A DNA stretch of 64,000 nucleotides from Bacilli bacterium (GTDB lineage: Bacteria; Bacillota_I; Bacilli_A; RF39; UBA660). Numbering within the stretch: position 1 is the stretch's first letter; each line of letters starts with the position of its first letter. Positions 59,175 through 62,605 of this stretch are shown here, piece after piece. The position numbers were made by a program, and so were the translations under genes. The notes under the pieces are model-generated. The model worked only from the letters and a program-made list of their open reading frames with translations. It did not search any database and was not told where the DNA came from. The stretch spans positions 12,107 to 76,106 of the forward strand of contig JAFRIU010000047.1 of the NCBI GenBank assembly GCA_017432645.1, read 5' to 3'.

Positions 59175-59876
59175 TTATTTTTCTAATTTTTGTAAAAATA
59201 TTTTTAATTTTTCTACTTTTAAACTAAGTCCACCAAGTAGGTATCCATCAATAAGGGATATCTGATTCAACTGATCAATATTTTCCTCGTTAGCACTTCC
59301 ACCATACAAGATAGATGCCTTAGGTAAAAAGGTCTTAATGAATTGAAAAACCTCTTCTATTTCCTGATTAGTTGGAATAATCCCTGTTCCAATAGACCAA
59401 ATTGGTTCATAAGCAACAATCATTCTCGCTCTATCTTCTTCACTCATTCCTTCAATGGCAGTTAAGATTTCTTGTTCTAATACCTCTTCTACCCTTCCCT
59501 GCTCTCTTTCTTCTCTAGTCTCTCCAATACATAAAATTGGCGTAATATCATTTTCGAGTAATCTCAATAATTTTTCATGAATCTCCTCTAGAGATTCTTT
59601 CTGATACTCTCTTCTCTCACTATGACCAATAATCGCATACTTAGCACCATAAGACTTTAATTGAAGAGCAGACACCTCACCAGTAAAAGCTCCATTTCCC
59701 CTAGAACTAACATTCTGAGAACCTAAAGAAATGGTATCAGAAGAAAACTGACCTAAATTCAAAAAAGTAGGACACAAAATCAATGTTTCATTTGTTTTAA
59801 TTTTTTTAAGCTCTTCTTGATAATGTTGAAACTCCTGGCAATCTAAATTACTTTTATTATTCAATGCAACAATCAT
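59175..59876 (-). CDS. tpiA: triose-phosphate isomerase
   Basis: IIGHSERR, AYEPIWSIGTG and YGGS motifs. Confidence 0.85.
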   Translation of the reverse strand: MIVALNNKSNLDCQEFQHYQEELKKIKTNETLILCPTFLNLGQFSSDTISLGSQNVSSRGNGAFTGEVSALQLKSYGAKYAIIGHSERREYQKESLEEIHEKLLRLLENDITPILCIGETREEREQGRVEEVLEQEILTAIEGMSEEDRARMIVAYEPIWSIGTGIIPTNQEIEEVFQFIKTFLPKASILYGGSANEENIDQLNQISLIDGYLLGGLSLKVEKLKIFLQKLEK

Positions 59877-61108
59877 TCTACAATCTCCTTTATTTTCTTC
59901 ACGATAGCAGAAAAAATACCAAATCGATTTTCTTTCTGTTTCTCATTAATAGCTCTAGTATATACTTCTAAAACTTTCTCACCATAATACTTAGAACGAT
60001 AATTCTCAGCCTGTATCCTTGCCTGTCTATCAAAATGTTCTAGTTCTTTTTTATCATTGTATAAGTACAGAATTTTCTCCTCATATTCTTCATTAGTCTC
60101 AAAAAACAAACCATTCAAGTCTTCTGTAATCATGCTTTCAAAAGCCTCATCCTTCATACATACCGGAACAACATTAGAAGCCATTGCTTCAATAATCGTC
60201 AATCCCTGAGTCTCCGTCTTAGAAGCTGTAGCAAAAACATTAGCAACTTGATAATAATAAGGCATATCATCCCAACTAACTTTTCCCGTAAAGAGAACAC
60301 TCTCTTCTAATCCTAACTCTTTAGACAAAGCTTCATATTGTTCTTTATCCGGACCATCTCCAACAATGATCAATTTAATATTCTTTGCCTTCTTCAATAA
60401 ATTCTTATGAGATTCTATCAAGAATTCAACATTCTTCTCTTCAGCTAATCTTCCTACAAATAGTATTACAAAATCATCATTAGATATATGAAGTTGATCC
60501 TTTAATTCTTCTATTTGGCTAGAATCCATATCTTCCTTAAAAAATCTTTCTACTTCAATCCCTGTTGGAATAATATTAATATTTTTTTCAAAACGATATT
60601 TCTCTTTAAATAGTTTATAAATCTTATTCGTCGGAACAATCAATTCTGTCGCAGTAGTATCACAATAAAACTTTGTTAAATATTCTACGACTTTTCTTCC
60701 AGAACGGTTAAAATAACCCTTCGTAATATAATGAATATAATCCTCATATAAAGTATGATAAGTATGAACTAATGGAATATTATACTGTTTCGCAAATAAT
60801 CTCGCAAAAGTTCCTATCGCAAACTCTGTCTGAGAATGAATAACATCCAAATTCCAACTCCTAATCTTTTTAATTGCACGAATTGGATAAATACTAGTTA
60901 AACGAGAATTATAGATACCAGTTGGAATTCCTGGAATCTTTAAAATTCTCTCTTCTTCGTCATACTCATACTTAAAACTTTCCAAATTAGCTGTGACAAC
61001 ATATACTTCATGACCATTTTCTTCCAAAGCTTTTTTGAGCATAACTTCACTAGTAACCAAACCACTAATATAAGGAGTATATGTCTCTGTAAATATTCCT
61101 ATTCTCAT
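59873..61108 (-). CDS. glycosyltransferase family 4 protein (putative glycolipid synthase)
   Basis: GT-B fold GT4 pattern, including the EX7E-like C-terminal region. Overlaps tpiA and the UPF0104 gene by 4 nt each. Confidence 0.7.
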   Translation of the reverse strand: MRIGIFTETYTPYISGLVTSEVMLKKALEENGHEVYVVTANLESFKYEYDEEERILKIPGIPTGIYNSRLTSIYPIRAIKKIRSWNLDVIHSQTEFAIGTFARLFAKQYNIPLVHTYHTLYEDYIHYITKGYFNRSGRKVVEYLTKFYCDTTATELIVPTNKIYKLFKEKYRFEKNINIIPTGIEVERFFKEDMDSSQIEELKDQLHISNDDFVILFVGRLAEEKNVEFLIESHKNLLKKAKNIKLIIVGDGPDKEQYEALSKELGLEESVLFTGKVSWDDMPYYYQVANVFATASKTETQGLTIIEAMASNVVPVCMKDEAFESMITEDLNGLFFETNEEYEEKILYLYNDKKELEHFDRQARIQAENYRSKYYGEKVLEVYTRAINEKQKENRFGIFSAIVKKIKEIVE

Positions 61109-62103
61109 TTTTTACCTCTCTTTTCTAAATTAAATACCGTAGCACCCAATAATATTCCAAAATAATAAGTAATAAATCTCCATAAAATCAAAGTGGCAGA
61201 TAAAATATCTGCAGAAACAAAATGATAATATACTTTACTAAAAGCATACTCTATTCCTCCACTAGATCCTGGAATGGGAATAAAGGATGCCATAACGTAA
61301 ACATAAGCAGAAGATATCAAAGTCTCAAAAAGCGTTAAAGAATGGCTAGACATAGCCAAAACTACAAAAAATGGAACACTATATAGACACGCTAAACTAA
61401 GTAAATTAAAGAATATTCCCTCTATTACAAGTTTTCTATTCTTTTTCATCTTTTGAAAGCTTTGATAATAATCTTCTAAAATCTTATCAATTTCTTGATC
61501 TTCCACTTGAATTCTTAATTGATGAACAATCCATTTAAAAACATTTCCAATCTTAATAGTAATTTTTTTAGAAGAAGAAAGGAAAAACAAAATAACTGCT
61601 ACCCCTAAATTCATCAAAAATCCCAAAGCAACAAAATAATTAGTTGCCGTATCCTGTGGAAAAAAGCCAAATAGCAAATTCAAAATAATAGCAATAACAC
61701 CAAATAGAACCAAAGCAATTTGATAAAAAATAGCACTTTGAATAACTTGATTGGTAGCCAAAGGAAGAGGAATATCATGTTCAGTTAACATATAAATTTC
61801 CATTGGCTGTCCCCCAGTAGAAAAAGGAGTAATGCCATTAAAAAACTGCACAATTATATTATGCTTAATAGCTTCCTGAATACTAAGCTTCTCCTTATCC
61901 CCTGTAATTTTATAATTAATATATCCACGTACAATAATGGAGAAAAAGAAGAAGAGAAAAGCAAGTGTAATATAAAACACTTGAATATTTTGAAAAGAAA
62001 GAATAATCTCTCTCCAATCCTTTCTCAAAATAATATAAAGAGAAAAAATCGTAATAACTAAAACAAGAATGGTATTTTTTCGAATATTTTTAATAAATCT
62101 CAT
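61105..62103 (-). CDS. UPF0104 / lysylphosphatidylglycerol-synthase-TM-like (flippase-like) membrane protein
   Basis: About eight TM segments. The pattern (FNGITPFSTGGQPMEIY) matches the YbhN/MprF-N-terminal-like family. Confidence 0.55.
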   Translation of the reverse strand: MRFIKNIRKNTILVLVITIFSLYIILRKDWREIILSFQNIQVFYITLAFLFFFFSIIVRGYINYKITGDKEKLSIQEAIKHNIIVQFFNGITPFSTGGQPMEIYMLTEHDIPLPLATNQVIQSAIFYQIALVLFGVIAIILNLLFGFFPQDTATNYFVALGFLMNLGVAVILFFLSSSKKITIKIGNVFKWIVHQLRIQVEDQEIDKILEDYYQSFQKMKKNRKLVIEGIFFNLLSLACLYSVPFFVVLAMSSHSLTLFETLISSAYVYVMASFIPIPGSSGGIEYAFSKVYYHFVSADILSATLILWRFITYYFGILLGATVFNLEKRGKK

Positions 62104-62104
62104 A

Positions 62105-62605
62105 TCACATTGCCCTTTGATGGTGATTCATCATTTCTCGTTCTACTAAATACAATCTTTCTCCACTCTCTTCTCCCAAATCTTCATAATTTTGAGACAT
62201 TAAATAATGAATTGTATCTCGATCTTCCGGATGAACCATCATAAATATTTCTTCTATCTGCCATTGACGAAAAACGAAATCCAAAATTTCTGGAATCATT
62301 TTTTGACTTTTTCCACTAGCAGATACTATATGAATTTTTGCTAAACGAATATCCTTTTCCCCATGGACATGACATATTCCAAGAATCTTCGATCCTCTCT
62401 CACAACAAAGGATTTCATCTATCTCATTTTTTTGAAGTTTTTCTTTATCATATTCTTCTTTTGAAAGAGATGAGCGTAGTATCTCTAGTTGATTAGTCCA
62501 TTTACCAAAACAAGAATGACTATTTTCAAAATCTTTTATCATCTGCATATGACCATCATCATATGGATGAACTAGAAATACTCTTTCTGTACTCAACTCT
62601 CTCAC
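62105..62605 (-). CDS. small GNAT-fold-like protein (hypothetical)
   Basis: 166 aa with a GNAT-like beta/alpha pattern (IHIVSASGKSQKMIPEILDFVFRQWQIEEIFMMVHPED). Tightly packed between pgk and the UPF0104 gene. Confidence 0.3.
   Translation of the reverse strand: MRELSTERVFLVHPYDDGHMQMIKDFENSHSCFGKWTNQLEILRSSLSKEEYDKEKLQKNEIDEILCCERGSKILGICHVHGEKDIRLAKIHIVSASGKSQKMIPEILDFVFRQWQIEEIFMMVHPEDRDTIHYLMSQNYEDLGEESGERLYLVEREMMNHHQRAM

Follow-up and report, generated by a model that had tools for sequence, protein, structure and literature searches.

The closest described relatives of the locus reported here are small gene sets in which a glycosyltransferase (GT) accompanies a membrane protein related to the transmembrane (TM) domain of MprF. 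In Listeria monocytogenes, LafA makes glucosyl-diacylglycerol (Glc-DAG) and LafB galactosyl-glucosyl-diacylglycerol (Gal-Glc-DAG) (PMC2764115, Webb et al. 2009), and LafC, an eight-helix membrane protein, is an accessory acting downstream of both enzymes in glycolipid and lipoteichoic acid (LTA) synthesis (PMC2764115). The hexSDF genes of Clostridioides difficile and the gpgSDF genes of Pseudomonas aeruginosa likewise associate a GT with an MprF-like protein (PMC10128005, PMC11483062), and PplT fused to GT-B domains has been reported (bioRxiv 10.1101/2022.03.11.483950). The pairing of a GT with a protein of the PplT/MprF-TM type is a known, recurrent design, of which lafABC, hexSDF, gpgSDF and the GT-B fusions are examples. 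We describe here such a pair in a 64,000-nucleotide stretch of contig JAFRIU010000047.1 from a Bacilli bacterium of the RF39 lineage (hereafter the window, meaning this whole stretch). A gene for a small protein, named X below, a flippase-like gene and a GT4 gene lie there between the glycolytic genes pgk and tpiA. We consider it fairly probable that a Laf-like membrane-glycolipid module was fixed inside the pgk-tpiA unit in the ancestor of a large uncultured clade of gut and rumen Bacilli that includes RF39.

In the list of open reading frames (ORFs), every gene of the 58.3-64.0 kb region is carried by the minus strand, in the order gap, pgk, X, flippase-like gene, GT4 gene, tpiA, terminator and spo0A. 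The pgk gene (62615..63787; phosphoglycerate kinase, 390 amino acids (aa); PF00162, 4.5e-137) starts at ATG 63787, with GGAG seven bases upstream, and stops at TAA 62615. The listed ORF is too long, and the 390-aa version is the one called on identical contigs, which come from ruminant gut metagenomes. X (62105..62605; 166 aa) starts at GTG 62605, or alternatively at TTG 62596 behind an AGGTGA Shine-Dalgarno site, and stops at TGA 62105. It is followed by the gene of the flippase-like polytopic membrane protein (61105..62103; 332 aa), the GT4 gene (59873..61108; 411 aa) and tpiA (59175..59876; triosephosphate isomerase, 233 aa; PF00121, 1.4e-67). The pgk and X genes are separated by nine nucleotides (TAA, 9 nt, GTG) and X and the flippase-like gene by a one-nucleotide spacer without overlap (TGA, 1 nt, ATG), and ATGA overlaps join the flippase-like gene to the GT4 gene and the GT4 gene to tpiA. 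An earlier interpretation of this DNA made from its letters alone, referred to below as the sequence-only reading, had proposed that three genes are embedded between pgk and tpiA with ATGA at both downstream junctions, and the three ORFs and both overlaps are found as it described them. Its further claim of an obligate co-translation goes too far, since no more than translational coupling can be read from an overlap of 4 nt.

The GT4 protein displays a two-domain GT4 architecture in Pfam (Glyco_transf_4, 3.5e-27; Glycos_transf_1, 1e-39), which supports its initial assignment. The best curated family is NF049988, alpha-monoglucosyl-diacylglycerol synthase, with 293 bits over profile positions 1-393 of 398, and the next-best family is BshA with 100 bits. 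The Listeria LafA protein, a proven Glc-DAG synthase, shows the same pattern, with 277 bits on NF049988 and 105 bits on BshA. Furthermore, the GT4 protein and LafA align over their full length (35% identity over 397 aa, E 3e-83), and the E299-x7-E307 motif of the former is aligned with the same motif of the latter; only a weak and partial match (43 bits) is obtained with LafB. On the GlcN_PG_synth (GpgS) equivalog, the GT4 protein scores 71.7 bits, below the cut-off of 480. The ratio of nonsynonymous to synonymous substitution rates (dN/dS) indicates that the GT4 gene is about as constrained as tpiA. We propose that this retaining enzyme is a homologue of the LafA/alMGS-type monoglucosyl-diacylglycerol synthases, with uridine diphosphate glucose (UDP-Glc) as the predicted donor and diacylglycerol (DAG) as the predicted acceptor.

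The membrane protein belongs to the PplT/YbhN/LafC family, as indicated by its matches to PF03706 (LPG_synthase_TM; 2.4e-34, 119.6 bits for a cut-off of 33.4, profile positions 4-302 of 302) and to TIGR00374 ("flippase-like domain"; 87 bits for a cut-off of 43.2). It shares 26% identity with Listeria LafC (E 3e-33) and scores 37.1 bits on the GlcN_PG_flip (GpgF) equivalog, under the cut-off of 320. An AlphaFold2 (AF2) model built on 25 homologues (predicted local distance difference test score, pLDDT, 80.4) was compared with the PDB by Foldseek. The top six matches are all MprF structures (9j8s, 7duw, 9j8q, 6lvf, 7f47 and 9goe), with TM-scores on the query (TMq) of 0.52-0.57, and the remaining matches have TM-scores of at most 0.30. 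MprF was not found by sequence searches of the PDB with either the single sequence or the 25-sequence profile; fold comparison alone detected it. These results agree with the earlier assignment of this protein to the UPF0104/MprF-TM type. The protein would act on the glycolipid after the GT4 enzyme, most likely by moving it to the outer leaflet.

Homologous pairs elsewhere were recovered through a protein search of mis-labelled "plasmid" records. In L. monocytogenes (locus L099, NZ_LR134400.1, 177-5819), the genes are fba, GT4, GT4 and a "YbhN family protein", and the last three are lafA, lafB and lafC, the published lmo2553 primer mapping to the start of the YbhN gene. The record itself, a 594-kb "plasmid", is evidently chromosomal. 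The lafABC genes stand there immediately downstream of a DAG-kinase-family gene and of fba, encoding a class II aldolase, so that glycolipid genes again adjoin a glycolytic gene. Two lactobacilli, Limosilactobacillus fermentum and Latilactobacillus curvatus, have a UPF0104 gene preceded by a GT4 or GT gene, and in L. curvatus an LTA synthase gene is found about 1.4 kb downstream of this pair. The homology of the GT4 and flippase-like pair with lafA and lafC had been missed by the sequence-only reading.

Taken with these homologies, the module can be given a tentative scheme. At the cytoplasmic face of the membrane, the GT4 enzyme would transfer a hexose, most likely glucose from UDP-Glc, to DAG, and the product would be a monohexosyl-DAG. 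The PF03706 protein, a homologue of LafC, HexF, GpgF and the MprF TM domain, would most likely move this monohexosyl-DAG to the outer leaflet, where the lipid may serve either as a bulk glycolipid or as the anchor of a polymer of the lipoteichoic-acid type.

The distribution of the arrangement was examined by scanning GTDB species representatives with conserved flippase peptides, and the best 80 of 337 relatives, all within the clade, were analysed. All 80 are uncultured metagenome-assembled genomes, variously labelled Bacilli, Erysipelotrichaceae, Tenericutes, Mollicutes or "Mycoplasma sp. CAG:877"; the GTDB genus CAG-877 belongs to the order RF39, family CAG-611 (PMC8035907). The order pgk, flippase-like gene, GT4 gene, tpiA on one strand is found in 74 of the 80 loci, five more are cut by a contig end and otherwise consistent, and one (L081) has no tpiA between the GT4 gene and spo0A. 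X is present in 76 of the 80, and spo0A lies directly 3' of tpiA in 68. Over 82 loci, the junctions between the flippase-like and GT4 genes and between the GT4 gene and tpiA are mostly of -4, -1 or +1 nucleotides. Identity within the set falls to 51% for pgk and to 35% for tpiA. The only arrangements beyond the clade that could be placed were those of one outgroup lineage (L096/L102) and of the distant operons in Listeria and Lactobacillus. The outgroup lineage keeps the order pgk-GNAT-flippase(-GT4), and its flippase-like protein (L096) is 36.5% identical to that of the window, a value lower than for any of the 80 clade members. A repeat search around the module yielded short matches at chance level only, with no flanking direct or inverted repeats beyond chance. 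A 14-nt exact repeat at 59413 and 59866 corresponds to two similar peptide stretches (MIVA) in tpiA. The GC content is 0.29-0.33 within the module and 0.31-0.36 in the flanks. Because of this deep divergence, the tight junctions, the same order in 74 of the 80 species, the absence of flanking repeats and the even composition, the arrangement is ancient and vertically inherited, not mobile; and because it recurs in the 74 genomes, with five more cut by contig ends, it is not due to chance.

Departures from this order were seen at two loci. In L081 (7014-9104), about 140 nt separate the GT4 gene from spo0A and no tpiA is found within 6 kb, so that the gene has moved or been lost there. In L095 (924-3500), a 3.9-kb metagenome contig, a 213-aa protein, a GT4 gene, tpiA and spo0A follow one another with no pgk or flippase-like gene upstream. 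The 213-aa protein is X-like in its C-terminal half only, and a peptidase-like gene lies on the opposite strand; this contig represents either a lineage with a true rearrangement or a chimera made in assembly. Further downstream, the clade loci (L015-L094) recurrently carry genes for an AAA_14/DUF4143 ATPase, an HTH_3 protein and a Y-family polymerase.

The third gene of the module, X, gave no match in Pfam or NCBIfam, and a word-indexed homology search with it returned three relatives only. An exhaustive profile search retrieved 203 cluster representatives, and the X family was built from this search together with ORFs extracted from the syntenic loci. All 78 ORFs located between pgk and the flippase-like gene in related loci belong to this family, as judged with an iterated hidden Markov model. 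The AF2 model of X (pLDDT 88.7, predicted TM-score (pTM) 0.82) follows the strand and helix order that is canonical for GNATs (beta1-alpha1-alpha2-beta2-4-alpha3-beta5-alpha4-beta6-7), and Foldseek returned 283 PDB matches at E <=1e-3. The 50 listed matches are GNAT acyltransferases, all with a probability of 1.00 and TM-scores up to 0.71, led by PseH and SpeG and also including RimJ and FdhC. Identity of X to any solved GNAT is 10-16%. A profile of 58 X orthologues matches Staphylococcus aureus SpeG by sequence alone (1.8e-4), and weak Acetyltransf_4 matches appear in only three of these 58 in a Pfam scan. With the Acetyltransf_1 match of a syntenic orthologue described below, the earlier guess of a GNAT fold for this 166-aa protein has proved right.

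X is nonetheless a divergent GNAT, whose acetyl-coenzyme A (acetyl-CoA) motif A is degenerate. This motif (Q/R-x-x-G-x-G/A, between beta4 and alpha3) is present in three of the 201 non-identical family members and absent from the other 198, and the window protein reads SASGKS at its position. The beta4-alpha3 loop is shorter in the family than in SpeG or in the outgroup orthologue P0241, the position of the usual catalytic Tyr is not conserved, and D85, in the beta3-beta4 turn, is the only invariant residue. The two outgroup orthologues, P0241 (L096:2281-2799) and P0273 (L102:1221-1739), occupy the same position between pgk and the flippase-like gene. P0241 passes Pfam Acetyltransf_1 (33.1 bits for a cut-off of 20.7), P0273 carries Acetyltransf_3 and Acetyltransf_1, and motif A is intact in both (RRHGFA and QGQGFA, respectively). 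The X family profile aligns with P0241 in hhalign with a probability of 99.4 (E 4e-21), and a homology search with P0241 found one further sequence only. Because the outgroup GNAT keeps its Pfam matches and an intact motif A, the ancestral X looks to have been a canonical acetyl-CoA enzyme that degenerated later in the main clade. No other gene of the unit evolves as fast as X, whose median identity to the window protein is 25%, vs about 71% in the case of GT4 and pgk. When the window is compared with its nearest relative, dN/dS is about 0.15 for X and 0.05 for the GT4 gene and tpiA, rough values given that synonymous sites are near saturation. The gene is missing, with no space left, in four of the 80 species belonging to at least three separate lineages, and X was lost independently at least three times. 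One "split" X (78-aa and 64-aa ORFs, L003:1350-1960), on a contig identical in all other respects, was considered as a pseudogene and rejected, as it results from a scaffold N-gap with a duplicated flank.

X would thus derive from a canonical acetyl-CoA GNAT with loss of the pyrophosphate-binding motif and fast evolution in this clade. Rather than an essential catalyst, it is most likely an accessory or regulatory subunit that can be dispensed with, or else an enzyme whose cofactor use has changed. A more active role can also be envisaged, in which X would be an acyl- or acetyltransferase acting on the sugar head group added by GT4, and the flippase-like protein would export the resulting acyl- or acetyl-hexosyl-DAG. 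Such a pathway would mirror hexSDF and gpgSDF, with an acetyltransferase instead of a deacetylase. The confidently predicted GNAT fold, the purifying selection on the gene, its retention in 76 of the 80 species with tight coupling to the flippase-like gene, and the motif A of the canonical outgroup orthologues all speak for it. The top fold matches include PseH and FdhC, N-acyltransferases whose substrates are nucleotide-linked amino sugars, and the beta4-alpha3 loop, Lys/Arg-rich in many members, could still bind phosphates. However, the near-complete absence of motif A in a shortened loop, the unconserved Tyr position with D85 as sole invariant residue, the losses of X while the flippase-like and GT4 genes remained and its fast evolution make this role rather unlikely.

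It is unlikely as well, in our estimation, that X is a re-tooled transferase that decorates the hexosyl-DAG, either by drawing on an acyl donor of a non-canonical kind or as part of a complex with the LafC-like protein. If it were, the unit would make an undescribed modified glycolipid, a major envelope component of RF39-type gut Bacilli, and would offer a first biochemical handle on the role of LafC/PplT-type proteins. RF39-type lineages stand on the evolutionary path from walled Firmicutes to Mollicutes.

The position of the module inside the glycolytic unit raises the matter of its expression. On the coding strand, intergenic terminator-like hairpins are found only after tpiA (59141..59176, minus strand; 14 pairs with a T-rich tail, resembling an intrinsic terminator at the end of the pgk-to-tpiA unit) and between gap and pgk (63836..63853, minus strand; a short hairpin of 7 bp with a T8 run), and none occurs in the intergenic spaces from pgk to tpiA. 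The remaining minus-strand matches of the terminator scan are within coding sequence and short, with weak T-tails. Promoter-like matches are not above shuffled expectation (30 found vs 24.1 ± 4.8), with no notable internal promoter. Because the gaps from pgk to tpiA contain no terminator-like hairpin and the start and stop codons overlap or abut, the five genes pgk, X, flippase-like, GT4 and tpiA are probably borne by one mRNA, and the glycolipid genes would then be expressed together with the glycolytic ones, as far as the DNA sequence can tell. The hairpin between gap and pgk is a possible attenuator or weak terminator, and 3' of it an extended -10 (TGcTATAAT) can be read at 63818-63810; since these elements separate gap from pgk, transcription of pgk-tpiA may be partly independent of gap. 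The gap gene (glyceraldehyde-3-phosphate dehydrogenase) is itself cut by the window edge, its 3' end lying at 63866..64000 (minus strand; stop TAG 63868-63866), and identical contigs carry a 334-aa Gp_dh_N/Gp_dh_C gene at this position. On the other side, spo0A (58306..59076, minus strand; 256 aa from ATG 59076; TIGR02875, 267.7 bits for a cut-off of 200) is a conserved downstream neighbour outside the module. An Rfam scan of the whole 64 kb found no family at gathering score. This null result extends to the long ribosomal-protein operons of the window (about 36-54 kb), and r-protein leaders are often found in such operons.

In our scheme, the placement of the module would be an ancient rearrangement held by tight gene packing, no metabolic control circuit being shown. 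A functional embedding could be put forward instead, in which glycolipid output would be coupled to glycolytic flux, with dihydroxyacetone phosphate from TpiA feeding glycerol-3-phosphate and DAG, and hexose phosphates feeding UDP-Glc. The conservation of the arrangement over deep divergence (pgk 51%, tpiA 35%) with overlapping junctions goes in this direction, as does the position of Listeria lafABC directly downstream of fba and a DAG-kinase-family gene. We find it quite improbable. No regulatory element was found, Rfam being null and no internal promoter notable; genes that have come to overlap do not easily part again, so that conservation can be neutral, and the data are explained just as well if the module hitch-hikes on a strong housekeeping operon. 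Moreover, L081 has lost tpiA from this position, one contig has an X-like gene, GT4 and tpiA without pgk or a flippase-like gene, and in Listeria and lactobacilli the homologous genes form operons of their own. The hard-wiring of the glycolipid genes to central carbon flux that the sequence-only reading had suggested is speculation.

Several points weigh against our proposal of a Laf-like glycolipid module carried by the glycolytic unit. The GT4 score of 293 bits does not reach the NF049988 equivalog cut-off of 400; since the proven LafA scores only 277, this is no argument against the function, and the donor sugar and acceptor are predictions from homology. The module has a single GT and lacks a LafB-type second one. 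Co-transcription is deduced from sequence, and a weak internal promoter may exist within the unit. Purifying selection acts on X, and 76 of the 80 species retain it, so that it is not junk; it may be catalytic with a non-canonical cofactor site. We know of no stand-alone PF03706 member outside MprF with a proven flippase activity. For LafC, the exact function is unknown and the role described is accessory only (PMC2764115), and in the view of reviewers of the Listeria work the phenotype of lafC was "not necessarily consistent" with a transport of glycolipids (PMC3089915); HexF is dispensable for product formation (PMC10128005), and GpgF is a predicted flippase only (PMC11483062). As for a polymer anchored on the glycolipid, the window encodes a 639-aa protein (3986-5905, minus strand) with an N-terminal membrane region and a Sulfatase domain, whose closest solved relatives are LTA synthases and an LTA primase (2w8d, 2.4e-15, then 4uop, 2w5q and 4uoo). 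This LtaS-like protein is very distant, with 79 bits for an LtaS equivalog cut-off of 970, and a genome survey predicts standard LTA synthesis to be absent or incomplete in RF39, RFN20 and ML615J-28 (PMC10868615).

Other identities of the proteins were also weighed. The GT4 enzyme could be BshA- or MshA-like, or a polysaccharide GT4, and not a lipid enzyme, the membrane protein then having an unrelated role. BshA and MshA enzymes are indeed its nearest solved structures by sequence, and its score is under the equivalog cut-off of the monoglucosyl-DAG synthase model. This identity is very improbable given the 293 bits on that model vs 100 on BshA, which mirror the values of the proven LafA, the full-length identity with LafA and the conserved pairing with a LafC homologue, as in Listeria and lactobacilli.

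The sequence-only reading had also viewed the module as a split MprF, with X as the aminoacyl-tRNA-dependent GNAT synthase half and the UPF0104 protein as the flippase half. Its general idea of glycolipid synthesis and translocation is reasonable and is retained here, and the split-MprF form is not. MprF does join a PF03706 TM domain to a GNAT-fold synthase, the X and flippase-like genes are 1 nt apart, and some MprFs are described as modifying glycolipids as well as phosphatidylglycerol (PMC11483062). Yet X is a single GNAT domain of 166 aa (about 165 aa in the family) and not a double-GNAT DUF2156. When 58 X members were scanned with E up to 1, the 25 Pfam families with the most matches did not include DUF2156 (PF09924). 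Aminoacyl-tRNA transferases of the MprF/FemX type have a tandem double-GNAT domain of about 300 aa. The 50 listed fold matches of X are acetyl-CoA enzymes, with no MprF or FemX among them, and the orthologues of ancestral type, which match Acetyltransf_1 and Acetyltransf_3, possess the CoA motif, the very motif that 198 of the 201 family members lack, so that the split-MprF analogy is hardly credible. The searches it had called for did return LPG_synthase_TM and Glycos_transf_1. Lastly, a recent mobile insertion or genomic island, which the same reading had said flanking repeats would reveal, can be set aside with near certainty, as nothing was found in its favour and the chance-level repeats, the even GC, the order shared by 74 of 80 species and the outgroup lineage, and a GT4 constraint equal to that of tpiA all contradict it.

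The remainder of the window informs on the cell envelope of this bacterium. Since it encodes an Amidase_3 protein with three LysM repeats (17763-18791, minus strand), an OatA-like 757-aa Acyl_transf_3 protein (8436-10709, plus strand) and a polysaccharide deacetylase of the PgdA/PdaB-like type (13676-14602, plus strand), the organism has and remodels peptidoglycan and is therefore walled, despite the "Tenericutes" and "Mycoplasma" labels given to some relatives. A canonical small GNAT (Acetyltransf_10/_7/_1; 3557-3970, minus strand) is encoded directly 3' of the LtaS-like gene. Also present are a 1525-aa protein with an FHA and two FtsK/SpoIIIE ATPase domains (26403-30980, minus strand), whose architecture is EssC-like and matches that of type VII secretion ATPases, an abortive-infection-like Abi_2 protein (22557-23528, minus strand), a zinc-dependent phospholipase C domain protein (23589-24602, plus strand) and a GNAT with a YoaP-like C-terminal domain (33607-34350, minus strand).

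Nothing relevant came out of a literature search for a glycosyltransferase gene within a pgk/tpiA operon, and what is unusual here is the fixed residence in pgk-tpiA across an uncultured clade together with a fast-evolving GNAT partner. Among stand-alone MprF-like proteins (PplT/YbhN/LafC), LafC, HexF and GpgF are all only predicted flippases, and the clade offers a very compact and strongly conserved version of such a system, with one GT, one LafC-like protein and an optional GNAT. The probable expression from a housekeeping operon points to a glycolipid that belongs to the core of the envelope in these abundant uncultured gut and rumen Bacilli, and the gene order provides a simple synteny marker for the clade. 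Furthermore, a GNAT that is canonical in the outgroup and degenerate in the main clade represents a natural case of an enzyme drifting to a non-catalytic or re-tooled role. Current concepts are unchanged and a known module type is extended; the points of interest are the role of the degenerate GNAT and the use of this compact system as a route to the function of LafC-type proteins.

Compared with known systems, the X model shares the fold of the SpeG, PseH and RimJ GNATs (Acetyltransf_1, _3, _4), and X differs from them by the absence of the Q/R-x-x-G-x-G/A loop and by an unconserved catalytic Tyr position. The membrane protein shares its Pfam family with the flippase domain of MprF, and MprF cryo-electron microscopy structures are its only good fold matches, but unlike MprF it has no fused synthase, and the adjoining GNAT is a single SpeG/PseH-like domain. 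The Acholeplasma laidlawii alMGS, taken here together with NF049988, the best curated family, is like the window enzyme a GT4 of the retaining GT-B type with an EX7E motif, the latter remaining below the equivalog cut-off of 400 with an activity that is predicted only. With C. difficile hexSDF and P. aeruginosa gpgSDF, the common point is the set of a GT, an MprF-like flippase-domain protein (HexF, GpgF) and a head-group modifier (PMC10128005, PMC11483062). Their third gene encodes a polysaccharide deacetylase giving a cationic amino sugar, whereas that of the window has a GNAT fold whose chemistry, if active at all, would be the opposite; the Polysacc_deac_1 gene of the window (13676-14602) is unlinked, about 46 kb from the module. 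The predicted acceptor is also different, namely DAG and not monohexosyldiradylglycerol (MHDRG) or phosphatidylglycerol (PG). The likeness with Listeria lafA-lafB-lafC (lmo2555-2553) lies in the GT4 protein resembling LafA and the membrane protein resembling LafC, within one tight operon in each case, and in an LtaS-family enzyme being also encoded in the genome. The module of the window differs by its reversed order, the LafC-like gene preceding the LafA-like one, by its single GT, by the additional GNAT-fold gene and by its place inside pgk-tpiA, while Listeria lafABC follows fba but forms its own operon. The variant features of the clade are thus the reversed order, the lack of LafB in the module and a third gene of GNAT origin in the place taken by the deacetylase in hexSDF and gpgSDF, and its core is a Laf-like glycolipid or lipoteichoic-acid-anchor module of an already known type, not a new system.

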